From the NCBI GenBank assembly GCA_965207065.1, contig OZ242260.1, positions 288,001-352,000 on the forward strand: 64,000 nt of DNA, written 5' to 3'. The notes under the pieces were generated by a model that was not told the origin of the DNA, ran no database searches, and saw nothing but the letters and a program-made list of their open reading frames with translations. Positions within the stretch are counted from its first letter, which is position 1. Each line of letters begins with the position of its first letter. The DNA is from a bacterium (GTDB lineage: Bacteria; UBA8248). The position numbers were made by a program, and so were the translations under genes. Below are positions 3,703 through 43,656 of the stretch, piece after piece.

Positions 3703-4200
3703 TCACATAGTTGGACGCAACTTGTTAATGGGAATCCACTCTTCATCGCCAGGTCGTTTGACTTGCCAGTATATCCAGCCATTCAGCTGGGGATGTTTCC
3801 CATCCTTAGTGATAACAACGCCGCCGGCAGCCTTGGAGGGGCTCCCAAAACGTTCGCCTTCCACCAACCATCTGCCATTTTGGATGATTCCCTTGTATCG
3901 GCGTCCCCGGTACTCCATCTGCAATTCCGTCCCGTGAGGCAAAGTTACGCCCTTCCCCCACCATGGCTGTTCCGAGTCTTCGGCCACTGACGATCGACCG
4001 CTCATATATCCCAAGTTTTCTCCCGAAAGTGCTTGATCTGTGTTCGACTGTGGCAAGTGCTGCGAAGATGTATTGTCGTCAACGATCTTCAAAAGTCGAC
4101 GCAAAACGGCGTTTGGCGAATCATCGAAGCTCAGCCTCGCTTCTTCAATCTTTTTGTGAACGGCAAAATCGATCTCTATGTTGCGTAACTTTGGCATCAT
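3703..4200 (-). CDS. SeqA-N/RHH-like domain fused to a RAMA/DUF4357-like domain
   Basis: N-term IEIDFAVHKKIE..DSPNAVLRRLL; C-term FGSPSKAA...NGWIYW; AGGAGG RBS. Confidence 0.6.
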   Translation of the reverse strand: MMPKLRNIEIDFAVHKKIEEARLSFDDSPNAVLRRLLKIVDDNTSSQHLPQSNTDQALSGENLGYMSGRSSVAEDSEQPWWGKGVTLPHGTELQMEYRGRRYKGIIQNGRWLVEGERFGSPSKAAGGVVITKDGKHPQLNGWIYWQVKRPGDEEWIPINKLRPTM

Positions 4201-4290: not shown

Positions 4291-4459
4291 AATATAGATA
4301 ATACAGTTTTTGAGCAAACGAGAGAAGCCCATCTGAATTTCTATATCTCGCACAGGCGAAACGACCCCATTACCAATCCGCGAACTGCGACGAACTTGGA
4401 AAGAGTCTGCCCTACAAGGACTTCTTTTCTCTGGAAATCGTGCAGGAGGTTGCTCCCCC

Positions 4460-8453: not shown

Positions 8454-9917
8454 TCAGCCGCCAAGGCCGTACTCCTCCCAGCGCCTCGTGACCCGCTCCT
8501 TAATCTCGTCCGTCATCACGATCTCGGGCGGCCATTCGCGCTCGAAACCCTCCGACGCCCATTTCCTCGTGCCGTCCACGCCCACCTTGCTGCCCACGTG
8601 GAGGCGCGGGGCGGCGTGTTCGAGCGCGTCCACGGGGCCGTCAACGAACACCATGTCGCGCCTCGGGTCGATGCTGCCGAGCACCTTCCAGGAGACCTCG
8701 CTGATGTCGTGCACGTTCACGTCCTCATCCACGATCACGATCACCTTCGCCAGCGCCATCTGCCCCATCCCCCACAGGGCGTACATCACCTTCCGCGCGT
8801 GGTAGGGATAGGCCTTGCGGATCGAGACGATCACCATGTTGTGGAACACGCCTTCGGCGGGCATGTGCACGTCCACGATTTCGGGCAACTGCATCTTCAT
8901 CAGCGGCAGGAATATGCGCCCCGTCGCCCCGCCGAGCCAGTAGTCCTCCATCGGCGGGCGGCCCACGATGGTGGTGGGGTAGATGGCCTCGCGCTTCCTC
9001 GTGATGGCCGTGACGTGAAAGACGGGGTAGTCGTCCGCCAGGGAATACCAGCCTGTGTGATCGCCGAAGGGACCCTCTTCCCTGAGTTCGCCGGGGTTCA
9101 GGTAGCCCTCCACCACGATGTCCGAATCCGCGGGCACCTCCACGTCCACCGTCCTGCACTTCACAAGCTCGGCGCTCTTTCTTCGCAGGAAACCGGCGAG
9201 GTTCAACTCGTCTATCGCGGGCGGCAGCGGCGCGCTCGCCGCGTAGACGTAGACGGGGTCGCCCCCCAATGCTATCGCCATCTCCATGCGCGCGCCCATC
9301 TTCGAGCTTTCCTGAAAGTTCTGCGCCCCGTCATGGTGTAAGTGCATGTGCATGCCGGCGGTGGTCTCGTCAAAGAACTGCACGCGGTAGAGGCCCACGT
9401 TCCGCCTGCCCGTCCGGGGGTTTCGCGAGTAGATGTGCCCGAAGGTGATGTAGCGTCCCGCATCCTCCGGCCAGCACTTGATGGCGGGAATCGAGAAGAG
9501 GTTCGGGTTCTCGGTCTCGACGATCTCCTGGCACGGGGCCACGCTCACCGTCTTGGGCGAGAAAGACGCGAGCCGCGCGAGCTTGGGCAGCATCTTCACC
9601 TTCTCGATGATGCCCTCGGGCGGTTTGATTTCCAGAAGCTCCGCCACCTCGTCCGCCACCGCGTCCATGCTCTCGACGCCGAGCGCCAGCTTCATCCGCT
9701 CCTCGGAAGCATAGGCGTTGATGAGTACGGGAACGTCGTATTCATGCCCGTCGGGAGTGACCGGCTTTTCGAACAAGAGGGCGGGGCCGCCGCTCTTCAC
9801 CGATCGGTCGGCGATCTCGGTGATTTCGAGTTCCACGTCGACCGGAACCTTGACGCGGCGCAACTCGCCCGCGCGCTCCAGGGCGTCGACGAATTCTTTA
9901 AGGGAGGCGTACGCCAT
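8454..9917 (-). CDS. mqnL: Menaquinone biosynthesis decarboxylase (UbiD family)
   Basis: LEITEIADR, GGPALLFE, RNVGLYR, EGPFGDHTG, GRPPMED; next to mqnP. Confidence 0.85.
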   Translation of the reverse strand: MAYASLKEFVDALERAGELRRVKVPVDVELEITEIADRSVKSGGPALLFEKPVTPDGHEYDVPVLINAYASEERMKLALGVESMDAVADEVAELLEIKPPEGIIEKVKMLPKLARLASFSPKTVSVAPCQEIVETENPNLFSIPAIKCWPEDAGRYITFGHIYSRNPRTGRRNVGLYRVQFFDETTAGMHMHLHHDGAQNFQESSKMGARMEMAIALGGDPVYVYAASAPLPPAIDELNLAGFLRRKSAELVKCRTVDVEVPADSDIVVEGYLNPGELREEGPFGDHTGWYSLADDYPVFHVTAITRKREAIYPTTIVGRPPMEDYWLGGATGRIFLPLMKMQLPEIVDVHMPAEGVFHNMVIVSIRKAYPYHARKVMYALWGMGQMALAKVIVIVDEDVNVHDISEVSWKVLGSIDPRRDMVFVDGPVDALEHAAPRLHVGSKVGVDGTRKWASEGFEREWPPEIVMTDEIKERVTRRWEEYGLGG

Positions 9918-30951: not shown

Positions 30952-32552
30952 GAAAAGCCCAACCTGACGAGGCAGGCGTCATAGACGTGGGGAATGGCGC
31001 GAACCTCTTCCATGACGGGTTCGGGCACCGGATCGTCGAGTATCAGGACGGCGACGGCCATGTCATGCTGCCACACGCGCCCCAGCTGCATGCCGGCGAT
31101 GTTGATGTTGTGATTCCCCAGCAGGGTGCCCATCTTTCCGATCATCCCGGGCCGGTCTTCGTTCCGGAATATGAGAAGATAGCCGCGTAACGCCACGTCG
31201 ACCGAATAGTCGTCTATCCGAACGATTCTGGGATCGTTCTTGCGGAGAAAAGTCCCCGCCACGGATCGCTCGCCCGAGTCGGTCTTCACGCGAAGCTCAA
31301 TCAGGTCCGTATAGAGGAGATTCTCCGTGCGAGTCGTCGTCCTCACATCGATGCCGCGCTCTTTCGCGAGCAGGAGGCCGTTCACCATATTCACGCGGAC
31401 GCTGGAGAGGAACCGGCCCAGCATCCCCTTGATGGCGGAGGCGGCCAGCGCCTTCATGGGTATGTCCACGGAGCCGCCATATACCACTTCGAGCGTCTGC
31501 AATCCCCCGCCCGCGAGCTGGGCCAGAAAATCTCCCAGGCGATCGGCCAGATCCAGATGGGGGCCGATTTGCTCGAGCACCTCGGGACTCAGGGAGGGCA
31601 GGTTCACCGCGTGGCCGACCACCCCTTCGGTCAGATACGCCACAACCTGTTTCGCCACGCTGATCGCCACGTTCTCCTGCGCCTCGGCGGTCGAGGCGCC
31701 CAGATGCGGCGTGCAGACGACGTCGTCTCGCCCGATGAGCGGGTCGTTCGGGTCGGGTGGCTCCTGTTGATACACGTCCACCGCCGCGCCCCCGACCTTT
31801 CCGCTGTCGAGCGCCTCGGCCAGCGCCTCCTCGTTGATGAGCCCCCCGCGCGCGCAGTTGATGATGCGAACGCCGTCTCGCATCAGGGCGATTTCCGCAG
31901 GGCCGATCAGGTTTCCCGTCTCGGTGTTCTTGGGCACATGCAGGGTGATGTAGTCGGACTTGGCCAGAAGCTCCTCGAAGTCCACCGGACTCACCCCGCG
32001 CTGGGAGAGCACTTCGGCGGAGATGTAGGGATCGTAGGCGAGTACGTTCATGCCCAGACTGCGGGCGAACGTCGCCGTCTGTGAACCCACGCGCCCCATC
32101 CCCACGACGCCCAGGGTTTTGGAAGATAGCTCGCTGCCCACAAAGCGGCTGCGCTCCCACTTCCCGCCCTTGAGGGAGGAGACAGCCGAGGGAATCTTGC
32201 GCGCCAGCGAGAACATCATGGCGATGGTGTGCTCCGCCGTGGTGATGACGTTGCCGTCGGGCGCGTTCGCCACCAGAATGCCGCGCATGCTGGCGGCCTC
32301 GAGGTCCACGTTGTCCACCCCGATGCCCGCGCGCGCGACCACCTTGAGCGTCTCGCCAGTACCCAGAAGCTCATCATCCACCTGCGTGCCGCTCCGGACG
32401 ATGAGCGCATCGGCGGTTTTGACGGCTTCGAGTATTTCCTCCCGCGAGGAGGAGGTGTAGTCGAGGACTTCAAAGCCCTCTTGGTCCTCAAGTATCTCAT
32501 GCGCCCTCGGCGAGAGCGGCTCGGCAATCAATACGCGAAACGTCTGGTTCAT
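30948..32552 (-). CDS. serA: D-3-phosphoglycerate dehydrogenase (ASB and ACT domains)
   Basis: RAGIGVDNVD, GMGRVG, INCARGG, TPHLGAST, DRPGMIG..NINIA. Confidence 0.95.
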   Translation of the reverse strand: MNQTFRVLIAEPLSPRAHEILEDQEGFEVLDYTSSSREEILEAVKTADALIVRSGTQVDDELLGTGETLKVVARAGIGVDNVDLEAASMRGILVANAPDGNVITTAEHTIAMMFSLARKIPSAVSSLKGGKWERSRFVGSELSSKTLGVVGMGRVGSQTATFARSLGMNVLAYDPYISAEVLSQRGVSPVDFEELLAKSDYITLHVPKNTETGNLIGPAEIALMRDGVRIINCARGGLINEEALAEALDSGKVGGAAVDVYQQEPPDPNDPLIGRDDVVCTPHLGASTAEAQENVAISVAKQVVAYLTEGVVGHAVNLPSLSPEVLEQIGPHLDLADRLGDFLAQLAGGGLQTLEVVYGGSVDIPMKALAASAIKGMLGRFLSSVRVNMVNGLLLAKERGIDVRTTTRTENLLYTDLIELRVKTDSGERSVAGTFLRKNDPRIVRIDDYSVDVALRGYLLIFRNEDRPGMIGKMGTLLGNHNINIAGMQLGRVWQHDMAVAVLILDDPVPEPVMEEVRAIPHVYDACLVRLGFS

Positions 32553-33688
32553 TGGTTGAACACCTCTTGCGCTGCGGTGAGGCCGCGCCCTCTATCCAGT
32601 GAATAGCCCAGATCGGCCAGGGTCGACTCCAGCGCGCCGACCGCGGCCAGCACGTCGGAGGAATCCACGTAACCCAGGTGACCGATACGGAAAATTCTGC
32701 CGCTCAGGACATCCTGACCGCCGGCGATGGTCACCCCGTGCGCATCCTGCATCCTCAGGGGAATCGCCTTCCCGTCCACTCCCTCCGGCACGCAAACGGC
32801 GGTGAGGGACTCGCTCTTCAAGTCCCGTGGGAATATGGTCATCCCCAATGCCTCGACGGCCGCCCCCGTCGCCCGCGCCAGCAGCGCATGCCGCGCGAAG
32901 ACGTTCTCCAGCCCCTCCTCGCGCATCATGTCGAGCGCGACCGCCAGACCCGCCAGAAGCGAGATCGCAGGGGTCCAGGCGGTGGTGTTCTTCATCTGGC
33001 TCTTTCGCTCGATTTCGAGGTCGAAGTAATACTTCGGCGAGGTCGATTCCGAAGCGGCGCGCCAAGCCCGCTCGCTCAGCCAGACGAAGGCCAGCCCCGG
33101 CGGGAGCATGAGCGCCTTCTGGCTCCCCGTGATCACGGCGTCCAGGTCCCAATCCTCGGTCTTGAGATCGTACACGCCAAGAGCCGTGATGGCGTCCACC
33201 ACCACAAGCGTATCGGGCGATCGCTCGCGCACCACTCTCGCGACGGCCTGCGTGTCGTGCTTGGCGCCCGTGGAGGTCTCGCTCGCCTGCATCAGCAGGG
33301 CCTTGTGCCCTCCCCGCTCGAGGCGCGCCTCCAGAACATTCAGATCGACCGAACGGCCCCATTCCACCTCCAGGACGTCCGCCTCGACCCCGTACGCCGC
33401 GCAAAGCTCCGTCCAGCGCTCGCCGAACTTGCCGCCCTCGATCACGAGCGCGGAATCGCCCGGCGAGAGAAGGTTCGCCACCGCCGCCTCCATGCCGCCC
33501 GTACCCGAAGCGGCGAGGGTGATGACGTCGCCGCTCGTCTGGAAGAGCCATTCGAGGCCGCGCCGCGCCCCTTCGAAGTGCGCCTCGAACTCCCGTGTCC
33601 GGTGGTGAATCAGGGGCCGCGCCATCGCTTCGAGCACCCGGTGGGGAACCGGCGTGGGACCGGGGGCCATGAGGTGGTGCTTGTTCAT
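32549..33688 (-). CDS. Alanine-glyoxylate/serine-pyruvate family PLP aminotransferase
   Basis: PGPTP, SGTGGMEAA, ETSTG, DAIT, GSQKALMLPPG, FRIGHLG. Confidence 0.9.
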   Translation of the reverse strand: MNKHHLMAPGPTPVPHRVLEAMARPLIHHRTREFEAHFEGARRGLEWLFQTSGDVITLAASGTGGMEAAVANLLSPGDSALVIEGGKFGERWTELCAAYGVEADVLEVEWGRSVDLNVLEARLERGGHKALLMQASETSTGAKHDTQAVARVVRERSPDTLVVVDAITALGVYDLKTEDWDLDAVITGSQKALMLPPGLAFVWLSERAWRAASESTSPKYYFDLEIERKSQMKNTTAWTPAISLLAGLAVALDMMREEGLENVFARHALLARATGAAVEALGMTIFPRDLKSESLTAVCVPEGVDGKAIPLRMQDAHGVTIAGGQDVLSGRIFRIGHLGYVDSSDVLAAVGALESTLADLGYSLDRGRGLTAAQEVFNQ

Positions 33689-33892
33689 TTCTCGCTCTTT
33701 CCCAAATGTGTGTCGTTTCGGACGGACGCGCGGCTACGCCCCAAGGATATACCATCCCCCGCCAAACCCCTCAAGCGATATCGTCTGGAAAGCGGGGCTA
33801 TGCGTAAAGGAACGAGCGCAAGAAACGGATAAACGCGCCTCTTTTCGTGAATATTTATAAGGCTGTTCGTGAACGTCCTTGCCACAGGAAGC

Positions 33893-34023
33893 GGGCGCTT
33901 CACGACGCGCCCCTATGGGAGAATCGTCGTAGGGGCAAGGCCCCTGTGCCTGCCCGGCCCTGCGTCTTTCCTACGAGGGACAACCACGGGGGGCAAGACA
34001 ACCCAGAAAGGTTGTCCTGCTAC
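33893..34023. repeat. Degenerate GTAG-type REP cluster
   Basis: GGGCGCTTCACGACGCGCCCCTAT, GTAGGGGCAAGGCCCCTGTGCCTGCCC (33929), GACAACCCAGAAAGGTTGTCCTGCTAC. Confidence 0.6.
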
Positions 34024-34049
34024 AAAACCACCACAACATATCCACACAC

Positions 34050-34104
34050 AAAAAAACCGGGGGGCCGAAGCCCCCCGGTCGTCGTCGCGTCAGGTAAGGA
34101 CGCG
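34050..34104 (-). terminator. Intrinsic terminator of porin A
   Basis: ACCGGGGGG-CTTCGG-CCCCCCGGT followed by a U tract on the minus strand, preceded by a CGCGTC/GACGCG hairpin. Confidence 0.9.
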
Positions 34105-34120
34105 TACGTCCTTCGTGCTG

Positions 34121-35338
34121 CTAGAAGATGTGGCGCAGCGTCCAGCCGACCGCCCAGCCGTCTTCCGCTTCAGGACCATCGACCGCTCTGCCGTAATCGC
34201 CGCGCAGAATAACGGCGCCCACACCGCGAAGCTCGAGATTCGAGTGGATCTTCCACTTGAAGCCGGCGTTGAGCTCGGTGCCGTATTCCTTCGCGTCCAT
34301 CGTGTCCGCCGCGAGGGAAGGTTCGGCGGAATTGTAAAGGGATACGCCGCCACCCAGCGTCAAGGTCTTGCTGACTTTGAAATCGGCCAGCCCCTCGATC
34401 ACGGTCGCGCCGTTCAAGCTGCGCAGATGCACGCTTCTGATGTTATTGCCCAGAGTCGTCCAGCGGCGCGAAGTCATGATGTGGCCGCCCACGAACCAGC
34501 CGGAGCCACCTTCCTGTGGCGTATTGAAGCGGCCGTCTTCGTTGGCTTTGGTGCCGTCATTGCCGGAGAGCATGGTGAGGTTGCCGCTCAGCTTCAGCTT
34601 GCCGAGACTCGCGGAAGTCCTCAGCAGGACCGCCCAACCAGAGAGTTCTGCGCCGCTTGAGAGGTCACCCTCCTGGATGACGACAGAACCGTTCACGTTG
34701 AGGATGCCCACCTTGGTCTTGGCGTTCAAACCGAGGAAGCTGTAGTCATAGCCGCCGGCCGCTGCGTCTCTCGAGTTGGCCACCCACGGCGAAACCGTGA
34801 GAGTGGGGGACAATTTAAAGCTCAGGCTGGCGTAATAATCCTTCGCATCGTCGTTTTCTGGGCCGGCGTCTTCATTCGCGCTGGTCATGAATGCGCTCAG
34901 CGAGATGTTCTTGCTCAGCTTGCCGTAGAGCGCAATGCCAGGCTCACGATGACGGCCGCTGCTGTCGTAAATTTCCTTGTCCGGAGAGAAGTAGTCCGTC
35001 CGGCCCATGCGGATGCGGAGCGCGCTGCCCGGAACCGCGAAGTCGAGCACCCAGCGGTTGACGCCGACGGTCTGCCGGCCGGGGCCGATTGCGAAGCCAC
35101 CGTTCGCGCTTACGAACTCGGGCTCCCACACGGCCGTAACGGCGCCGTTCTTCGCCGTGAAGCGCGGACGAATGAGCGCGTCCAGGTATCTATCCTTGTC
35201 TCCATCGTCTCCTTCAACGGCTTCACTGGAGCCACGCACCCGGTAGAAGCCGCTGAACTTCAGATCGGCAGCGTACGTGGGCGCAGTAAATGATACGACG
35301 AGCGCCAGCGCAAATAGAGCTAACAGAATTTTCCTCAT
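34121..35338 (-). CDS. Outer-membrane porin-like beta-barrel (porin A)
   Basis: Signal peptide ..AAD, amphipathic beta strands, terminal LRHIF, GAGGAG RBS. Confidence 0.8.
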   Translation of the reverse strand: MRKILLALFALALVVSFTAPTYAADLKFSGFYRVRGSSEAVEGDDGDKDRYLDALIRPRFTAKNGAVTAVWEPEFVSANGGFAIGPGRQTVGVNRWVLDFAVPGSALRIRMGRTDYFSPDKEIYDSSGRHREPGIALYGKLSKNISLSAFMTSANEDAGPENDDAKDYYASLSFKLSPTLTVSPWVANSRDAAAGGYDYSFLGLNAKTKVGILNVNGSVVIQEGDLSSGAELSGWAVLLRTSASLGKLKLSGNLTMLSGNDGTKANEDGRFNTPQEGGSGWFVGGHIMTSRRWTTLGNNIRSVHLRSLNGATVIEGLADFKVSKTLTLGGGVSLYNSAEPSLAADTMDAKEYGTELNAGFKWKIHSNLELRGVGAVILRGDYGRAVDGPEAEDGWAVGWTLRHIF

Positions 35339-35405
35339 GTGTATTTCTCCTCATCGAGGTTTCAAAAAAATGTTGCCGCCTTCCTTCGATTTAATGTCTT
35401 GGTTG

Positions 35406-35462
35406 TTAAATGCTTCTGCATCTGTGCTTCGTCGTCTGCAACAGGGCTTCCCGTTCTCGCAT
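35406..35462 (-). CDS. Putative leader peptide MREREALLQTTKHRCRSI
   Basis: GGAGAGGGGGTG SD-like sequence before ATG; homologous to the uORF at 38527. Confidence 0.5.
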   Translation of the reverse strand: MREREALLQTTKHRCRSI

Positions 35463-35554
35463 CACCCCCTCTCCTCAATGCTGCCCCGTACGTCGACAAG
35501 TTTCTATCGAGCGATCTGATTATTGCCGCTTATATAGACACTATCCCGCTAAAG

Positions 35555-35584
35555 AAAATAGTCATTCCATTCCCCATTTCTCAA
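35555..35584 (-). promoter_or_regulatory. Putative porin A promoter
   Basis: Minus strand TTGAGA, 18 nt, TATTTT, at the position homologous to the porin B promoter. Confidence 0.45.
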
Positions 35585-35869
35585 AGAATAGAGATGATAT
35601 GATTTAAAAGCTAAAACGCCGACAATCATGCGCATGGATGCGCTCATATAATATAAATATATGTTTTTAATTGATTTATAATTACATTTTCTTCCGCGTT
35701 GCCCCTTGCGCCATCGCCAGATTTGTGCTGGAATGCGCTCTCAGTTGATGCAGGACGTATGCGTTTTGATGACGTATTTTGACGGGAGCGCCGCGCCGGA
35801 GCATGCGGATGGGCGTTCCCGCAGACCGCCGCAGGCATGCGGTTTGATGACACACCGGAGGGAGGAACC

Positions 35870-37054
35870 ATGCCGAGGAGAAGCGAATTCAGGCTCACCA
35901 AGCGCGCCGTAGACGCGCTCGAAACCGAACGCCGCGACGCCCTGTTCTGGGACCGGGATCTGGCCGGATTCGGGGTGCGCGTCCATGCCACGGGACGGAA
36001 GGCTTTTGTCGCGCAATCGAGAGGCCCCGGGGGGATAAAACGCGTGACCCTGGGCCGTGACGGGGAGATGTCGTGCGAGGAGGCGAGGAGGCAGGCCGCC
36101 ATCGTCATCGACCGCATTAAAAGCGGCGAGGACCCGGTCCCGAAGCCGCCTGCGGCGGAGCCGACAGTGGCCGTGCTCGCCGAGCGCTTCATGCGCACTT
36201 ACGTGGAGAGACGCCTCAAGCCGGGCAGCGTCGTGGAGTACCGCACCATGCTGGACAAATATATCCTGCCGGCCCTGGGGGGGATGGCGCTGTCCGGGGT
36301 CAGGCGGGCGCAAATCTCCGCGTTTCATCACGGCATGCGCGGCATGCCGAGCCGGGCGAACACGTCGCTCCACGTCCTCTCCCGGATGTTCAGCCTGGCC
36401 GAGGCGTGGGACCTCGTCCCGCCCGGACGGAATCCGTGCAGGGGAGTGCCGCTATACAGAACGCGCTCGCGCGAGCGGTTCCTGACGACGGAGGAATACC
36501 GCCGCCTGGGCCGGACGTTAAAAGAGGCCGAGGCGGACGGCTCGATCTGGCCGCCCGCGATCAAGGCGATCCGGCTGCTCATGCTGACCGGATGCCGGAG
36601 GAACGAGATACTGAACCTTAAGTGGGACGATGTGGACCGCACGGCGGGCGTTCTGAGGCTGAAGGACGCCAAGGCGGGCCCCCGCATGGTTCCCCTGACG
36701 AATCCCGTGCGCAGGGTTCTCGAGACGCTGCCCCGGAAGCGGGGCGAGCCGTGGGTGATCCTCGGGCAAAAACCGGGCCGGAACCTGCAGAGCCTCTATT
36801 ACTACTGGCGGCCCATACGGGAGCGGGCGGGTCTCTCCGACGTGCGGATCCATGACCTTCGCCACTCGTTCGCTTCGCGTGCGCTGGCGCTGGGCGAGAG
36901 CCTCTACACGATCGGCAAGCTGTTGGGACACGCGACGGTGCCGACGACGGCGCGCTACACGCATCTGATGCTCCGGGCCGAGAAGGATGCGGCCTCCCGT
37001 GTGGGGGGAAGCATCGGCGTTCACCTGACGAACGAGAAGGAGGAACTTGAATGA
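35870..37054 (+). CDS. Tyrosine recombinase/integrase 1 with N-terminal arm-binding (DUF4102-like) domain
   Basis: GGAGG RBS; WDRDLAGFGVRV; TGCRRNE, DAKAG, HDLRHSFAS, LGH, TARY. Confidence 0.92.
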   Translation: MPRRSEFRLTKRAVDALETERRDALFWDRDLAGFGVRVHATGRKAFVAQSRGPGGIKRVTLGRDGEMSCEEARRQAAIVIDRIKSGEDPVPKPPAAEPTVAVLAERFMRTYVERRLKPGSVVEYRTMLDKYILPALGGMALSGVRRAQISAFHHGMRGMPSRANTSLHVLSRMFSLAEAWDLVPPGRNPCRGVPLYRTRSRERFLTTEEYRRLGRTLKEAEADGSIWPPAIKAIRLLMLTGCRRNEILNLKWDDVDRTAGVLRLKDAKAGPRMVPLTNPVRRVLETLPRKRGEPWVILGQKPGRNLQSLYYYWRPIRERAGLSDVRIHDLRHSFASRALALGESLYTIGKLLGHATVPTTARYTHLMLRAEKDAASRVGGSIGVHLTNEKEELE

Positions 37055-38220
37055 AGAAGCCGGGCACGATGGTGCTGTCGAGCCGGATGGTGGAGAAGTT
37101 TGTCGTGGAAAAAGACACGGTGTACTGGGATAGTTACGTCACCGGCTTCGGCGTCAGGGTGTATCCGAGCGGGAGCAAGGTCTACATCGCCCAGGCGCGG
37201 GGGCCCGGGGGGCCGAAGCGCGTGACGATAGGCCGCCACGGGGTGATCAACGCGGATGAGGCGAGGAGGCGCGCGGCGCTCGTCGTCAATCGCATCAAGT
37301 CGGGCGAGGAAGCGGTTCCGAAACCGATGAAGCCCGTGGCCGGTCCCACGGTGGCCGAAGCCGCCGCGCGGTATCTCGCCGAGTACGTGGAGGTGCGCTG
37401 TAAGCCGCACACCGCCGCCATGACCCGGTCTCTGCTCGGAAGGCGCATCCTGCCCGCCCTGGGCGGGACGCCGCTCGTGGTGGTGGAGCGCGCGCAGGTG
37501 GCGGAACTGCACCAGAGCATGCACGAGACGCCCCCGACGGCGAACAGGACAGTCGGCATCCTCTCCGCGCTATACCGGTATGCCGAGAGGTGGGGCCTCA
37601 TTCCCGAGGGAGCGCCGAACCCTTGCCGCGCCGTCGTCAAATTCCCCAAGCGGCAGGGGGAGCGTTTTTTGACGGATGAGGAGTTCATCCGCCTGGGACG
37701 CACGCTCGACGAGGTGGAGAGCGGTAAGCCGAAGTGCGCGAACGCGGTGGCGGCGATCAGGCTTCTGGCCCTGACGGGTTGCCGGAAGAGCGAGATACTC
37801 ACCCTGCGCTGGGAGAACGTGGCGCTGGAAGAAGGTGAATTGAGACTGCCCGATTCCAAGACGGGCGCCCGCGTGGTCTCGCTCCCGCCGCAGGCGGTCG
37901 CGCTCCTGGCCGCCCTTCCCCGGGAGGAGGGGAATCCCTGGGTAATTCGCGGCAGGAAGCCTGGCGTGCGCCTGAGGAACATCTACGGCGTCTGGTACTC
38001 CGTCCGCGCTCGGGCGGATCTCGATGACGTGCGGCTCCACGATCTCCGCCATTCGTTCGCGTCGCGGGCGCTCGCGCTGGGCGAGAGTCTTCCGATGATC
38101 GGCAGGCTCCTGGGGCACAGCCGGATCGAGACCACGGCGCGCTACGCGCACCTCGCGCGCGATACCGCCCACGAGGCGGCCGAGCGGGTTGCGGCGAGCA
38201 TCGAGAAAGACATACTATGA
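37051..38220 (+). CDS. Tyrosine recombinase/integrase 2, paralog of integrase 1
   Basis: 4-bp overlap with int1; TGCRKSE, DSKTG, HDLRHSFAS, LGH, TARY. Confidence 0.92.
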   Translation: MKKPGTMVLSSRMVEKFVVEKDTVYWDSYVTGFGVRVYPSGSKVYIAQARGPGGPKRVTIGRHGVINADEARRRAALVVNRIKSGEEAVPKPMKPVAGPTVAEAAARYLAEYVEVRCKPHTAAMTRSLLGRRILPALGGTPLVVVERAQVAELHQSMHETPPTANRTVGILSALYRYAERWGLIPEGAPNPCRAVVKFPKRQGERFLTDEEFIRLGRTLDEVESGKPKCANAVAAIRLLALTGCRKSEILTLRWENVALEEGELRLPDSKTGARVVSLPPQAVALLAALPREEGNPWVIRGRKPGVRLRNIYGVWYSVRARADLDDVRLHDLRHSFASRALALGESLPMIGRLLGHSRIETTARYAHLARDTAHEAAERVAASIEKDIL

Positions 38221-38400
38221 GAGGCAATCGACGGGGTGGACGAAAAAGAATTGATTTGCCTGACCGGATTCGTGGCTCGTTTTTTGGAAAATTTCTGGAT
38301 TCGGGGTTTGACAAATCAGGGTATCTTCGCTAATGCTATTGATATGGGGAATAGGACGACTGATTCCGAAAATTTTTTGCGAATTCACATGGGAAGTTTG

Positions 38401-38430
38401 TTGACAAAACATGAATTTTCCGTCTATTCT
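38401..38430 (+). promoter_or_regulatory. Sigma70-like promoter of porin B
   Basis: TTGACA, 18 nt, TATTCT; a second TTGACA lies at 38308. Confidence 0.65.
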
Positions 38431-38526
38431 TTTGTGAAGTAATGAATATCACATAAGCGGGAAACTGCTGGTTCGCTCGATAGAACCTTAGTCGAATTAC
38501 GGGGTGGTGCTTACGGAGAGGGGGTG

Positions 38527-38598
38527 ATGCGGGAGAGGGAAGCCCTGTTGCAGACGACGAAGCACGGATACAGAAGCATTGGACAACCAGGACATTAA
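38527..38598 (+). CDS. Putative leader peptide MREREALLQTTKHGYRSIGQPGH
   Basis: SD-like GGAGAGGGGGTG; synonymous differences relative to the copy at 35406-35462. Confidence 0.5.
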   Translation: MREREALLQTTKHGYRSIGQPGH

Positions 38599-38652
38599 AT
38601 CGAAGGAATACGGCAACATTTTTTTGTGAAACCTCAATGAGGAGAAATACAC

Positions 38653-39936
38653 ATGAAGAAACTTCTGTTAGCACTATTCGCGATTGCGCTCGTCGTGGCG
38701 TTTACCGCGCCCTCGTATGCGGCCGACTTCAAAATGAAAGGTTTCTACCGTGTTCGCGCTTTCAGTGGCAGCCTCAATCAGGCCGATAATGATAACGATG
38801 ACGGATCCGCCAGTGGTATCGACTCGCTGATAAGGCCGAACTTCTTGACGAGTGTCGATGGCGGCAAAATCAAGGCCAGATGGGAAATCGACTGGTATGA
38901 AAACGATAACTCCGCGAACGCGAATGCGGTCTGGGGACAAAACGGCGGCAGCCGCATCGGCGTGGGAACGAACCGCTGGCATATCGATTTCGCGATTCCG
39001 GGCAGTGCGCTCCGCATGCGCTTGGGCCGCGAGGACTACACCTCCCCGGACAAGGAAATTTTCGACTCCGCTGGGGCCAATCGTAAGCCTGGCATCGGGG
39101 TCTATGGCAAGCTCAGCAAGAACATGTCGCTCAGCATGTTCATGGTTCGGGCTGGGGCGAGCGGCTCAAACCGCACAGTCGAGACTGAGGATAAAAACAA
39201 AGACAGCTACTTCGCGGCTTTGGGCATCAAGGTTTCCCCGACGACCACTCTTACTCCTTGGGTGGCCCTGCACCGCGACGGCGAGCATAAATCCCTCACG
39301 TACGCTGCCCTGCACGCCAAGGCGAAAGTCGGCATCTTCAGCGTGAACGCCACCGGCGTTACGGTGGGTGGTGATTATTCAGATACAATGGATGCTTCCG
39401 GCTGGGCGTTTCTGTTGAGAAACACAGCCAGCCTGGGCAAATTGAAGCTCATGGCCAACCTGACGATGCTCTCGGGCGATGACAACGAAACTGACAAAGA
39501 AGTAGGCGAGTTCAGTCTATTGTTTCCCAACGCGGGCGATATCGTCAGTGGTGTTCTCATTTCGGGCCGCGGCAACATCATGCTCATTGACGCGAATGAA
39601 CGCATCAGGGGGAACACAAGCAATGGGAAGCTGACGAAGAACAAAGGAAAAATGGGGTTGACAAACGGCGCGGTCATCGGCGAACTCGGACTTAAGTATC
39701 AGGTCAGCAAGACCTTGAATCTGGGCGCCGGGATATACATCTACCAGTCTGCGGAAGATGACAGTGAAGGCGACAGTGACTTCGGCACCGAGTTCGACTT
39801 CGGCATGCAATGGAAGATTTATTCCAATCTGGCGCTTCGCGCGGGATTCGCGTACTTGGCGGCCGGCGACTACGGCACGAACAACGACAAGGAAGACTCC
39901 TGGATGACCGCAGTTTCTCTGCGCCACATCTTCTAG
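38653..39936 (+). CDS. Outer-membrane porin-like beta-barrel (porin B), paralog of porin A
   Basis: Near-identical signal peptide; shared blocks GFYRVR, PGSALR, SPDKEI, YGKLSKN, LTMLSG; terminal LRHIF. Confidence 0.8.
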   Translation: MKKLLLALFAIALVVAFTAPSYAADFKMKGFYRVRAFSGSLNQADNDNDDGSASGIDSLIRPNFLTSVDGGKIKARWEIDWYENDNSANANAVWGQNGGSRIGVGTNRWHIDFAIPGSALRMRLGREDYTSPDKEIFDSAGANRKPGIGVYGKLSKNMSLSMFMVRAGASGSNRTVETEDKNKDSYFAALGIKVSPTTTLTPWVALHRDGEHKSLTYAALHAKAKVGIFSVNATGVTVGGDYSDTMDASGWAFLLRNTASLGKLKLMANLTMLSGDDNETDKEVGEFSLLFPNAGDIVSGVLISGRGNIMLIDANERIRGNTSNGKLTKNKGKMGLTNGAVIGELGLKYQVSKTLNLGAGIYIYQSAEDDSEGDSDFGTEFDFGMQWKIYSNLALRAGFAYLAAGDYGTNNDKEDSWMTAVSLRHIF

Positions 39937-39951
39937 GAGCTTGATTGACTT

Positions 39952-40009
39952 CGCGTCCTCACCTGACGCGACCATAACCGGGGGGCTTCGGCCCCCCGGT
40001 TTTTTTTTT
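39952..40009 (+). terminator. Intrinsic terminator of porin B
   Basis: Same hairpin as porin A (cUUCGg loop) followed by a long T run. Confidence 0.9.
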
Positions 40010-40199
40010 GTGTGTGGACAACTGTCATAATCGAGTACAAGAGCAGAAAATTCTCCGTCTCTCGCTCCTGTGCCGCTTATGCCTTTTCTTATTCGTGCCT
40101 GTCTGTCGCTGGATCACCATGTACCGTTTTCGGTACGCGCGGGGCATGGGGACGCCGCCATTATTGAGTCGTCGGTTATCCCGACAAAAAACCGGCCGC

Positions 40200-40930
40200 G
40201 ACGCCCTCCATTGGCGCCGGCGATGTCTCCACGGCAGACGCCAGAACCTGATCGCTGGCTTCCGCGTCACGACGCAGATGGCCTTTTGTGCGATTCCCGC
40301 AATCTGGCGAGATGGCGGTTGAAGAGTGCTTTCGTCTCCCTCGTTCCACCAGTTCCATTGCCAGACGCCTTCAATCAGGATGGAACGCAGGCGCTTCTGT
40401 CCGACAGGCCGGAGCTGGGCGCGGACCAAGCTGTCGCCGCTATGGCGGACGACGGGCGAAAGGCTCAGACAGGAGGCCACCTTCTTGACGCGGTTGAAGC
40501 GCTCCGGCGCAAATATCTCGGCCAAGAACCTCGCCGACCCCGCCAGGTTGCATCAAGCATTCGTAACGGTCCGGATGCAGACGCTTCGTCTCTCGCCTGA
40601 CCTCACGTTTCAAGAACCGATGTTCTTCCTGGCAATACTCGCGGATCATTGATATTCAGGGCATCGTTCATGCTTAGGCGCCAGGGGTAGCGCCTCAAGA
40701 TCGTCCCCTACGGTACTTACCCATTGCCTCGTGCCCAGCGGCTCCTCGATGCCCGATGTCGGCAGAAATTCCTTTATCTTCTGCTTGATCCCTGGTCCCG
40801 GCCTAGGACATCCGCTTGCAACGCCGTACAAGTGCTCGATTACCTTCTTCATTGAGAGAGGAAACAGCTACGGACTCCCGGCGAAGCAAATGGCCGGTTG
40901 CTCCGCGTCGATTCGGTCGTTTCAACCTGC
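40200..40930 (-). pseudogene. Heavily frameshifted IS110-family transposase remnant
   Basis: Fragments NDRIDAEQ, PGGVG, AEIFAPERF..LSPVVRHSG..GQKRLRSILIEGVW, KAICVVTRK. Confidence 0.7.
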
Positions 40931-41712: not shown

Positions 41713-43656
41713 CTATTCCCCGATCCTATAGAAAAATATCTGGCTCCTCACTCCGGCGAACGGGCCCGAACTCGCCGTCGCCACCACCAGATCGTCGGAA
41801 CCGTCGTTGTCCGCGTCGCCGAATGCGAAATCCACGACCCCGCTGTTCAACTTCCTGGTGCGCCAGGTTTCACTTAACCCGCCACCCTCCCAGAGCAGAC
41901 TCGCTATTTGTCCCCCGGAAACGCCTAACCCTGGCGCAATGGCAGTACTGTATTCGTTGCGAATCACCAGAACTTCATCCACACCGTCCCCCTCGACGTC
42001 TTCGATCATCACGCGCGAGCGTATTGGGAGGTCCGGCGTGTCCGCCTGTTCTTCGCTGCGCTCGGCACCGGCCTGGGAGAAGAACTTATGGACCGCCGCG
42101 CCGTATTTTTCAGAGCTTGAGTAGACCTCTGCGCCGCTCCTCGAGAACACCCGCAGCCTGTCGTCGTTGCCCACCTCAATGACCTCCTGCGCGCCATCCT
42201 TGTTGATGTCCCACAAGCCGAAACCCAGTATCGTCAAATCGGGCGGAAGCGGATAAGGAGCGGCGGACATGAGTTTCCCGCCCGACCAGCGATAGCTGCG
42301 GATGGGACCCTCGAAAGCCTCGTTGAGTCCCTCGCTCTGGCCCAGGAGCAGGTAGGTTTCCGAGTCAGGAAACTTCTCTCCCCTCTTTGGCCGCCGCACC
42401 CGTATCAGGCGATAAAAAGTCCTGTCGTTCCTGACGAGGGGCGTGAACTTACCATTTTTGAACTGCAGGATCATCGAGAACAACTCGTTCGAGCGGTAAG
42501 AGGCGAGGTAGAACTCGGGCGCACCGTCACCGTTCATGTCGGCGACGTCGATCCATCTGAAATCGTTCGCCGCTCCCCCTTCGAAACGCGCGATCTCGCG
42601 CAATCGATTCCCATCGAAGCGGTTGACTATGACCTGAGTCTGCGTGATGAGGACGATTTCGTTCTTCCCGTCTCCGTCCACGTCCGTGAGGGACAACCCG
42701 CGCAAAGCGACCTTGTCGAACGAGTAGCTCTTCATGCCGTCGGCCTTGCCGGGCGAGCCCTCTCGGGCAAACACGAAACTCTCGTTCGCAGGTCCCGCGC
42801 GTTCTCGGCCCCCGCGCCTCAGTTCCTGCACCCTGGGCGCAAGACCCTGATCGAAGGGCAACTCGTCCGCAATCGCCACAGCCTTGAAGAGTTCCTCCTT
42901 CGTGGTGAGGGATAAAAGGCGGGTGGAGAATATCTTCCTCCCCCGGATCTCGCGCAGTTCGTTCTGGAGCGCCATGTCGCCCCGCACCTGGTTCCGCAAG
43001 TGTATGGGGTTTTTGTTTTCAAGAATTTGATGAGAAGCGATGCCCGTCTCGAGGAGCCATACCTGCAGCCTGTCCATGTCGTAAACATCGAAGCGTCCGC
43101 TCCTCAGGAGTTGACGACTCAGCTCCCTCGTAAGCGTTTCCGTGCTGACGGCCTCTTTCGTTCGGTTGACGAAAGGAAGTATCGCCAGGCGGATTTTCGC
43201 GGCGGACATGCGCACCGTGTCCCTGACGCGCGGGGAGAGTCGTCCGCCAGGCGCCAGGCGGACCAGACGCGCGATGGAAAATTTCTCCCGCACCTCGACG
43301 ACTTCGATCTCGCCGATCTCCTCTTCCAGCTTGCCGAGTATGACGCCGCTCGCCGGGTGCCGGAACGGCGCGCCCTCGCGGTAGACACCCAGCTTGACGC
43401 CCTTGACCACCTCATCCTTCTCGCCGAGGCTCAGGTAGAGATCCGCCCCCTTGACGGCAACCACCGAGCCGCTCAGATTCGGAAACTTCCGGTTCAGCTT
43501 TTCGCTGATGAGGCCTAAGGCCTTGCGGTAATCGTTCTCCTGGGCGTGAGTCAAGCCGCCGGATCCACCGAGGAAGATTATAAAAAACAACAGGACGAGC
43601 GGCGCCTTCGCGACGATGCGAGAGAACATGAAAAACCTCATTATAGGGATACTCAC
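41713..43656 (-). CDS. Exported FG-GAP/VCBS-repeat protein (start may be 43641 or 43629)
   Basis: Signal-like N-term; DVDGDGKNEI, DMNGDGAPE, DINKDGAQE, DVEGDGVDE, DADNDGSDD repeats. Confidence 0.8.
   Translation of the reverse strand: MSIPIMRFFMFSRIVAKAPLVLLFFIIFLGGSGGLTHAQENDYRKALGLISEKLNRKFPNLSGSVVAVKGADLYLSLGEKDEVVKGVKLGVYREGAPFRHPASGVILGKLEEEIGEIEVVEVREKFSIARLVRLAPGGRLSPRVRDTVRMSAAKIRLAILPFVNRTKEAVSTETLTRELSRQLLRSGRFDVYDMDRLQVWLLETGIASHQILENKNPIHLRNQVRGDMALQNELREIRGRKIFSTRLLSLTTKEELFKAVAIADELPFDQGLAPRVQELRRGGRERAGPANESFVFAREGSPGKADGMKSYSFDKVALRGLSLTDVDGDGKNEIVLITQTQVIVNRFDGNRLREIARFEGGAANDFRWIDVADMNGDGAPEFYLASYRSNELFSMILQFKNGKFTPLVRNDRTFYRLIRVRRPKRGEKFPDSETYLLLGQSEGLNEAFEGPIRSYRWSGGKLMSAAPYPLPPDLTILGFGLWDINKDGAQEVIEVGNDDRLRVFSRSGAEVYSSSEKYGAAVHKFFSQAGAERSEEQADTPDLPIRSRVMIEDVEGDGVDEVLVIRNEYSTAIAPGLGVSGGQIASLLWEGGGLSETWRTRKLNSGVVDFAFGDADNDGSDDLVVATASSGPFAGVRSQIFFYRIGE

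Follow-up and report, generated by a model that had tools for sequence, protein, structure and literature searches.

Two paralogous porin genes, porA and porB, diverge from each other in the stretch of bacterial DNA analyzed here (the window, 64,000 nt, whose numbering is used for all coordinates unless a locus is named), and the spacer between them carries a tandem pair of tyrosine recombinase genes, int1 and int2. The window belongs to a genome of 4.48 Mb, referred to as G000. An earlier note, made from the letters alone, had described divergent porin paralogs around two intact tandem tyrosine recombinases, and inverted homology of the leaders and signal-peptide codons that includes identical blocks of 29 bp and about 19 bp; all of these features were found where the note had placed them. 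It had further proposed that the integrase cassette inverts, thereby switching the porins. The locus is made up of the following features.

34041-34104: outer end of the inverted duplication, including the intrinsic terminator of porA (stem-loop 34055-34080, minus strand); from inverted repeats with 39952-40018 and a terminator scan
34121-35338, minus strand: porA, predicted to encode a porin-like 18-stranded outer-membrane beta-barrel with a signal peptide and a C-terminal Phe
35339-35582, minus strand: fixed leader A, the presumed 5' untranslated region of porA (about 240 nt), including the 29-bp block
35583-35592: left recombination core, AAAGAATAGA on the plus strand and TCTATTCTTT towards porA, including the −10 hexamer TATTCT
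35593-38422: invertible segment of 2830 bp, consisting of the int1-end region, int1, int2, and the int2-end region with the −35 hexamer
35837-37054, plus strand: int1, tyrosine recombinase with an arm-binding N-terminal domain
37051-38220, plus strand: int2, paralogous tyrosine recombinase with an arm-binding N-terminal domain
38401-38406, plus strand: −35 hexamer TTGACA from a promoter scan, in the segment interior at its int2 end
38423-38432: right recombination core, TCTATTCTTT, with the −10 hexamer TATTCT at 38425-38430
38433-38652, plus strand: fixed leader B, the presumed 5' untranslated region of porB (about 216 nt, counted from the predicted transcription start)
38653-39936, plus strand: porB, diverged porin paralog, which adjoins the −35 end in the assembled orientation
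39952-40018: outer end of the inverted duplication, including the terminator of porB (39976-40001, plus strand)

The porin genes are separated by 3314 bp, in which no long open reading frame (ORF) besides int1 and int2 matched the families tested. Family matches in the invertible segment are those of the two tyrosine recombinases only, and no serine recombinase domain was found there. Inverted homology connects the leaders (35363-35474 with 38515-38626; 112 nt, 91%) and the leader and signal-peptide codons (35224-35370 with 38621-38767; 147 nt, 80%), with an identical 29-bp block at 35424-35452 and 38537-38565 and an identical 20-bp block spanning the start codons. It continues patchily through the porin genes as far as the terminators (34050-34104 with 39952-40006, 93%; 34041-34056 with 40003-40018, 100%), and has sharp outer ends at 34041 and 40018. 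Since the porin leader is present in only two copies in the whole G000 genome, it is not a dispersed repeat.

Closer to the integrases, about 220-245 nt upstream of each porin start, lies a perfect 10-bp inverted repeat (35583-35592 and 38423-38432), which we call the core. The two arms of G000 have unlike sequence immediately beyond the core, and the well-matched repeat sets in only after a further 40-70 nt.

Orientation of the cassette in relatives and sequencing runs

We mapped marker genes at 20 loci from 17 genomes; the genus set as a whole comprises 23 genomes including G000, and the other 22 all have porA-like genes. In the window, the porin locus lies between two further genes.

32549-33688, minus strand: class-V aminotransferase gene
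41713-43656, minus strand: FG-GAP/LpoB-like gene

The usual layout in the genus is the aminotransferase gene, a single porin gene, and the FG-GAP gene, all on one strand (G001, G002, G004, G006, G007, G008, G015, G016, G018, G019, and G022). G020 has two tandem porins, and the G010 locus has no aminotransferase gene in range. The module, that is, divergent porins around int1-int2, was found in five relatives (G011, G012, G013, G014, and G017), and the core shows no variation among the 12 leaders of the six module genomes (these five and G000). A divergent porin pair lacking integrases, the layout in relatives that the earlier note had named as speaking against inversion, was present in none of the 17 genomes examined.

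When the loci are turned so that the aminotransferase gene lies on the left, the int2 end of the cassette adjoins the left porin in all five relatives, and the int1 end adjoins it in G000. The metagenome contig L130, in which the int1 end adjoins the FG-GAP-side porin, is arranged like the five relatives. The orientation of G000 is therefore the minority one, present in one of the six module assemblies.

Comparison with G014, whose integrases are 95-96% identical to those of G000, separates the cassette from the porins. The left, int1-adjacent leader of G000 matches the right, int1-adjacent leader of G014 (93% over the whole 528 nt). In a sliding comparison, the first ~250 nt beside int1 match the right side of G014 only (90-97% versus 22-58%), the next ~250 nt match both sides, and from ~650 nt the body of porA matches the left porin of G014 (mostly 84-98% versus 58-86%). 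Identities of the porA body were also put at 90-98% for the same-side porin of G014 and at 66-79% for the opposite one. Because the int1-adjacent leader and the porA body thus match opposite sides, the cassette flipped between the G000 and G014 species and the porins stayed in place. Forward collinear alignments of G000 to all five module relatives end at 35592-35598.

We then turned to Logan contigs of sequencing runs. Run X1 is the probable source run and contains all sampled words; X3 is another sample with the same organism label. X1 contigs cover the locus in the following pieces.

33600-35592: depth 18
35563-35612 (50 nt): depth 10
35583-38158: depth 18.5
38133-38432: depth 16.9
38403-38452 (50 nt): depth 9
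38423-40400: depth 16

The X1 contigs break on both sides of each core (35592/35583 and 38432/38423). The 50-nt pieces across the two junctions are about half as deep as their neighbors, so that in this run only about half of the depth backs the reference junctions. No base differences were listed across the 6.8 kb. The 30-mers at the four breaks are unique in the genome, indicating that the X1 graph branches at the cores for a reason outside the reference. Inverting 35593-38422 in silico created exactly 40 new 31-mers, with starts at 35563-35582 and 38403-38422, which are the counterparts of the two 50-nt pieces. The inverted-junction pieces themselves are absent from the X1 listing, presumably since records of 50 nt with a fit over 30 nt are left out. 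In X3, a contig of 376 nt (depth 4.1) runs through 38133-38422 and continues with 86 nt from 35592 on the opposite strand, the two parts sharing 10 letters. This contig is the predicted inverted junction, with the int2 end beside porA.

The same breakpoint was thus observed in X1, in X3, and between species. Taken together, these results bear out the central claim of the earlier note: both orientations of the integrase cassette exist among related species and, at contig level, in runs with the same label. Inversion is well supported, directly by the species comparison and at contig level within one organism. The breakpoints, 35592 and 38422, fall within the range that the note had proposed to map (about 35.45-38.55 kb); the crossover point has to be revised, from the 29-bp block or the signal-peptide codons to the 10-bp core at the inner edge of the leaders. 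Crossovers spread over long 5' regions, as in the sap system of Campylobacter fetus, were not observed, and since the breakpoints are fixed at the core, the exchange does not behave like one of the RecA type within long repeats. We also considered the 29-bp block as the recombination site and rejected it: the breakpoints lie 130-170 nt further in, and the block belongs to a 5' leader that is conserved genus-wide, including in members without integrases.

Two further runs, the RNA run X4 (labeled as a sponge metagenome) and the DNA run X7 (with another organism label), contain a porA-like gene 98-99% identical to window positions 34074-35590. With respect to the window, both contigs end at 35590, at the core, and the X4 contig continues into sequence with the TTGACA promoter end; it may come from a single-porin relative. 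The X4 and X7 contigs show neither transcript starts nor transcript levels, and bear on expression neither way.

The predicted split promoter and the two porins

A consensus promoter scan detected TTGACA (38401-38406), an 18-nt spacer, and TATTCT (38425-38430), matching at 10 of 12 positions. The −35 hexamer lies within the invertible segment and the −10 hexamer within the core. All six int2 ends have TTGACA followed by a 17-18-nt spacer, and none of the six int1 ends does. We also inspected 14 other porin loci, comprising single-porin loci, one tandem-porin locus, and an orphan porin of G013. TTGACA stands at the same distance before the core, or before a core with 1-2 mismatches, in 13 of these, none of which has integrases alongside; the exception is the G013 orphan porin. 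Twelve of the 14 loci were printed (G006 and G016 were dropped for unreliable start coordinates), and in 11 of the 12 a conserved tttgTTGACAaa... promoter was found 254-314 nt before the ATG, including upstream of porins that are only ~50% identical. As it is kept in single-porin relatives without integrases, TTGACA/TATTCT is probably the native promoter of the porin, and a long 5' leader follows it.

The core includes the −10 hexamer and the two spacer bases before it, so inversion restores the spacer and the −10 exactly. In the assembled orientation, porA faces a TTAGCT-like −35 and porB has a complete predicted promoter. The arrangement of these motifs strongly suggests that the two porins share a promoter by inversion. 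The earlier note had envisaged two promoters being exchanged; instead, the −35 and upstream half of a single, predicted native porin promoter moves, and the −10 lies in the core.

The leader of 220-245 nt (35339-35582 and 38433-38652) is conserved in nucleotide blocks across the genus, with the same region in 23 further porin loci, and leader A stays with porA in both orientations. The conserved blocks include the 29-bp block and a purine-rich GGGGGTGAT block. An upstream ORF of 17-23 codons over the 29-bp block was considered and discarded, as its frame is not kept in loci L027 and L030 (judged by eye). An Rfam search of the porin leader returned nothing at gathering score, and RNAalifold on 25 leaders gave 8 weak pairs only (−2.5 kcal/mol), that is, almost no common structure.

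PorA and PorB are 46% identical (E = 9e-101), and both have a signal peptide and end in ...RHIF, with a C-terminal aromatic residue. PorA is the ortholog of the single porin of the relatives, being 84-88% identical to their aminotransferase-side porin. PorA was modeled with AlphaFold (AF2) on the basis of 26 genus homologs; the model shows 18-19 strands, with a predicted local distance difference test score (pLDDT) of 85.8 and a predicted template modeling score (pTM) of 0.83. A Foldseek search with the model returned 18-stranded channels: AlgE (TM-score 0.69), MOMP of Campylobacter jejuni (0.63), and OccK (~0.6). In Pfam, PorB had beta-barrel matches below threshold only, and the porins scored 38.7 and 77 bits against the NCBIfam homotrimeric porin family NF033939 (DESULF_POR1), whose cut-off is 250, making them distant relatives of that family at most. 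Judging from the modeled fold, it appears justified to describe both as porin-like outer-membrane channels that are not assignable to a named porin family.

The earlier note had also held that the porins keep their strand blocks and differ in the loops. Mapped on the AlphaFold model, the difference in identity is slight (49% in strands, 42% elsewhere), and it is the gaps that follow the expected pattern, with 39 of 42 gap columns outside strands, so that the claim is weakly borne out. The distal porin is very different even between close relatives, as in PorB of G000 and its counterpart in G014, and the leader and terminator are conserved, which suggests that porin alleles are swapped as cassettes.

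The integrase pair and a block inserted beside the porin

Int1 and Int2 are 52% identical to each other. Both matched the Pfam families PF00589 (Phage_integrase; 1.3e-22 and 2.5e-20, respectively) and PF13356 (Arm-DNA-bind_3; 1.9e-11 and 1.3e-07). Tyrosine recombinases use the catalytic residues Arg, Lys, His-x-x-Arg, His, and Tyr, and the motifs TGCR..E, HDLRH, GH, and RY were recognized by eye in both translations. Alignments of Int1 to its relatives start at residues 6-10, and its true start is likely the ATG at 35870, which follows GGAGG. Both genes are intact in all six module genomes, with ratios of nonsynonymous to synonymous substitution rates (dN/dS) of 0.14-0.44 over ten comparisons (0.14-0.44 for int1 and 0.14-0.37 for int2). 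Against the NCBIfam model for tyrosine-type DNA invertases, NF007371, Int1 scored 15.8 bits (E = 0.0077; cut-off 222) and Int2 had no match at E up to 0.01; by this model, the two proteins are not members of the FimB/FimE invertase family.

The G000 genome has ten int1-int2 pairs, which are 60-70% identical in protein and 71-74% in DNA within the coding region only. All ten consist of two genes, and none has a third recombinase gene as in RIT elements, described as three adjacent overlapping recombinase genes (PMC3414803, in the part available). Besides the pair at the porin locus, the G000 pairs are as follows.

Starts in G000 (loci L121-L129): 13990, 70295, 898241, 1131188, 1557635 (minus strand), 1925757, 2371258 (minus strand), 3128227, 4432466

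We considered these nine pairs as similar switches and rejected them, as they have no flanking inverted repeats beyond chance 9-12-mers and no core-like sequence. Their neighbors are island-like: a SMODS/SAVED pair resembling a cyclic-oligonucleotide-based antiphage signaling system (CBASS) and a helix-turn-helix (HTH)/ImmA pair (beside pair d); HU, a helicase, and one more integrase gene; enoyl-CoA hydratase genes (two copies); and three TonB-dependent receptor genes of 849 aa. The receptor genes (L121:1268-3817, minus strand; L121:7569-10118, minus strand; L123:2243-4792, plus strand) adjoin two int pairs, one of which has receptor genes on both sides in direct orientation, and at least two of them are ~98% identical in DNA. 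They could be cargo of the same element family, or represent another surface-protein rearrangement. Of the 23 genus genomes, 16 have members of the int-pair family, at most 11 copies in any one.

A maximum-likelihood tree built from 16 pairs (32 proteins, none dropped) splits into an Int1 clade and an Int2 clade (100/100). In each of them, the proteins from the porin loci of seven genomes form a single group apart from the nine other G000 pairs (100/99 for Int1 and 88/88 for Int2). Int1 at ≥76% identity is confined to seven of the 23 genus genomes, namely the six module genomes and G015, and scans of genomes and metagenome contigs with Int1 gave one new close locus, L130, the others being the same relatives or distant integrases. 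Judged by their domains and position, Int1 and Int2 are the likely catalysts of the inversion and probably act together; their ancient, always-paired arrangement would fit joint action, as with XerC/XerD. The same ancient pairing speaks against a local duplication that produced two specialists, one for each direction.

Comparison of G011 and G012 with the single-porin genomes G018 and G019 points to how the module arose. The left porin of G011 and G012 keeps the ancestral porin-FG-GAP intergenic region up to ~87 nt from the int2 stop. The extra DNA, ~5.0 kb, contains int2, int1, a core, a leader, the second porin, its terminator, and ~690 nt of repeat-rich DNA; the 3' end of the FG-GAP gene is repeated on both sides of it, in direct orientation (TATTCCCTGATC and ~20 similar bases).

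Direct repeats in the turned frames of loci L021 and L023: G011 at 4400 and 9426; G012 at 4088 and 9537

G017 has the left copy of the repeat, and its contig stops short of the right one; the TATTCCCTGATC direct repeats were looked for in G000, G014, and G013 and not found. The ~5-kb block thus looks like an integrated element with attachment sites. If it was inserted, the five relatives have the ancestral orientation, in which the promoter sits where it was originally. Part of the attachment region, TATTCCCTGA, agrees with the core region TATTCTTTGA at 8 of 10 positions (rough chance ~1-2% with offsets allowed), a suggestive likeness that would fit one enzyme recognizing both. The repeat-rich DNA of G011 (8739-9430 of the turned frame) contains short hairpin-forming repeats, of which well over 100 partial copies occur across G000 and which resemble small dispersed repeat elements.

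A tentative account of these data is that the ~5-kb block is a small integrative element that inserts beside the major porin of its host, at the 3' end of the FG-GAP gene, and brings a porin allele without a −35 of its own. The same integrase pair, acting on an attachment-core look-alike that happens to be the −10 of the host porin, might then share the promoter between the resident and the imported porin. If so, the module would be a portable, self-contained surface switch, which could spread receptor variation (e.g., against phages) among species of the genus and could swap porin cargo through recombination within the leader and terminator, which are conserved.

The proposed switch, its rivals, and known systems

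We conclude that the locus is probably a site-specific inversion switch that toggles porA and porB through one split promoter. The 2830-bp segment (35593-38422) carrying int1-int2 would flip between the two inverted 10-bp cores (TCTATTCTTT), so that the porin facing the int2 end would gain a full sigma-70-type promoter (−35 TTGACA, 17-18 nt, TATTCT) and the other would be left with a poor −35 (TTAGCT-like in G000). Expression would toggle between porA and porB, with porB on in the assembled orientation. Int1 and Int2, encoded in the segment, would catalyze the flip, and the pair descends from the integrase-pair family whose other genomic copies have island-like neighbors.

Several points weigh against this proposal. 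The run evidence consists of contigs and not of raw reads; the inverted junctions in X1 are not directly seen but appear only through breaks and half-depth reference junctions, and X3 offers one inverted junction only, at low depth (4.1). Contigs cannot tell switching within a clone from coexisting strains. Around the cores, neither dyad-symmetric recombinase sites nor conserved arm-type sites could be defined; ATGCGCATGG-like short repeats, present in 3-4 copies near the int1 end in G000, are unconserved in the other lineage. The recombinases and the module are linked by descent, and their co-occurrence is not independent evidence of function. In addition, fixed leader A contains a second promoter-like site (TTGAGA, 18 nt, TATTTT; 9 of 12 matches), which could give expression independent of orientation.

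This last site, which partly overlaps the core, favors an explanation in which the segment inverts and leaves the porins unswitched, each porin being driven from its own fixed leader and the flip being neutral or regulating the integrases. We regard this as improbable, as the leader A site is unconserved, with its −10 or −35 degraded in G011, in G012, and in leader B of G000, whereas TTGACA-17/18-TATTCT is kept at all six int2 ends and at 13 of the 14 other porin loci. The inverted repeats are hundreds of bases long, and inversion might accordingly proceed by homologous recombination between them, or through a recombinase encoded elsewhere, with the int pair serving only to integrate or excise the ~5-kb element; indeed, the direct repeats around the block in G011 and G012 imply that the pair has, or had, a role in integration. 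Homologous exchange would be expected inside the 91% or the 29-bp-identical stretches, however, and the breakpoints sit at a 10-bp core on the inner edge of the homology, at the same point in X1, in X3, and between species. The 8/10 match of TATTCCCTGA and TATTCTTTGA, which fits one enzyme recognizing both, likewise speaks against a pair confined to integration, and this explanation is also unlikely, slightly more so than unswitched porins.

The limits of contig-level data bear on the question of whether switching is ongoing. X1 may be a mixed culture or a metagenome, and the minority orientation is found in one of six assemblies, so rare ancient flips might have been fixed by lineage, the run signal coming from two coexisting strains. 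Yet X1 has no listed base differences over 6.8 kb and both of its junctions stand at about half depth, X3 as a second sample of the same label has the other orientation, and the perfect conservation of the cores and purifying selection on the integrases argue for continued use; we therefore consider the absence of ongoing switching very unlikely. Hardly credible is the alternative raised in the earlier note itself, an old inverted porin duplication between whose copies an unrelated integrase pair landed. The nine other int pairs in island-like contexts in G000 do show that the pair is or was mobile. However, the comparison with single-porin relatives places the integrases of G011 and G012, together with their second porin, in one inserted block of ~5 kb, divergent pairs without integrases occur in 0 of 17 genomes, and the porin-locus pairs form their own integrase clade.

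The switch proposed here resembles several known systems in part. The Hin H-segment of Salmonella carries the recombinase gene and an outward promoter inside the invertible segment; Hin is a serine recombinase, the promoter lies wholly inside the segment and drives one side (ON/OFF), and the alternative flagellin is controlled via a repressor. The porin locus is like it in layout but differs in its tyrosine recombinases and in having a target gene on both sides. In the sap system of C. fetus, one promoter on an invertible segment is placed before either of two oppositely oriented surface-protein homologs; that inversion depends on RecA and on long 5' regions of conserved sequence, with secretion genes on the segment. 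Here, by contrast, exchange occurs at a fixed 10-bp core, and two site-specific recombinases are encoded on the segment. FimB and FimE, an adjacent pair of tyrosine recombinases, act on short inverted repeats at fimS. Promoter inversion by tyrosine recombinases is also described for ipuS of Escherichia coli with IpuA/IpuB (the UpaE switch; PMC6083910, available in part). FimB/FimE and IpuA/IpuB differ from the porin-locus integrases in being short, in lacking an arm-binding domain, in lying outside a 0.3-kb element, and in turning one operon ON or OFF.

Closest in logic are the mycoplasma systems, Vpma of Mycoplasma agalactiae and also Vsp of M. bovis and Vsa of M. pulmonis, with a locus-encoded tyrosine recombinase and a single promoter (PMC2268961, as far as the available part goes). 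In Vpma/Xer1, one promoter serves a family of surface genes through inversions at short sites upstream of each gene; a single Xer-like recombinase, Xer1, lies beside a locus of several lipoprotein genes, with sites within 72 nt of the start codons (same part of PMC2268961). Unlike in Vpma, there are two genes here, two arm-domain integrases inside the flipped DNA, and a site that is the −10 hexamer, so that the promoter is split by the crossover. The integrases themselves have the same make-up as those of P4-type genomic islands (Arm-DNA-bind_3, SAM-like, and catalytic domains), and the island-like contexts of the ten int pairs and the gene-3'-end direct repeats around the block are further likenesses to P4-type elements. 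Tandem and trio tyrosine recombinases have been reviewed (Tn554 TnpA/TnpB, RIT trios, and BIM). Compared by description only, they share tandem adjacent or overlapping genes with the pair studied here; they are described as mobile, and a role in promoter inversion is not described in the available part of the review (PMC3414803).

Programmed inversions of surface-protein genes are well known in host-associated bacteria, and the present one comes from an environmental lineage known largely from metagenome-assembled genomes. No such porin switch was described in the literature covered (open-access full text and bioRxiv; subscription journals were not covered). The combination is unusual: the core is the predicted −10 of the native promoter, the flipped DNA carries an arm-domain integrase pair, and a target gene lies on both sides. 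A two-sided switch would give either/or expression of porins that are only 46% identical. If confirmed, it would represent a mobile-element integrase pair turned into an invertase, in a compact two-state switch, and would help to study how bacteria not yet in culture change a major channel of the outer membrane, which is likely a phage receptor as well as a determinant of permeability.

Core-like arrangements were also seen outside the six modules. In G015, inverted cores lie 20.8 kb apart (L028:11064, minus strand; L029:8864, plus strand), with the FG-GAP gene, other genes, and an int pair between them, and 3.6 kb separate int1 from the core of the second porin; the arrangement may represent a disrupted module or an invertible segment of much greater size. 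A third porin of G013 (L037:10989) lies beside a second FG-GAP gene, ~1.6 Mb from the module. With int1-end-like sequence before its core and no TTGACA, it is an orphaned "off" half and may point to a large rearrangement by way of the cores. In the window, a transposase remnant lies directly beyond the right end of the inverted duplication.

40025-40525, minus strand: fragment of an IS110/IS116/IS902-family transposase, C-terminal domain only (E = 1.1e-10)

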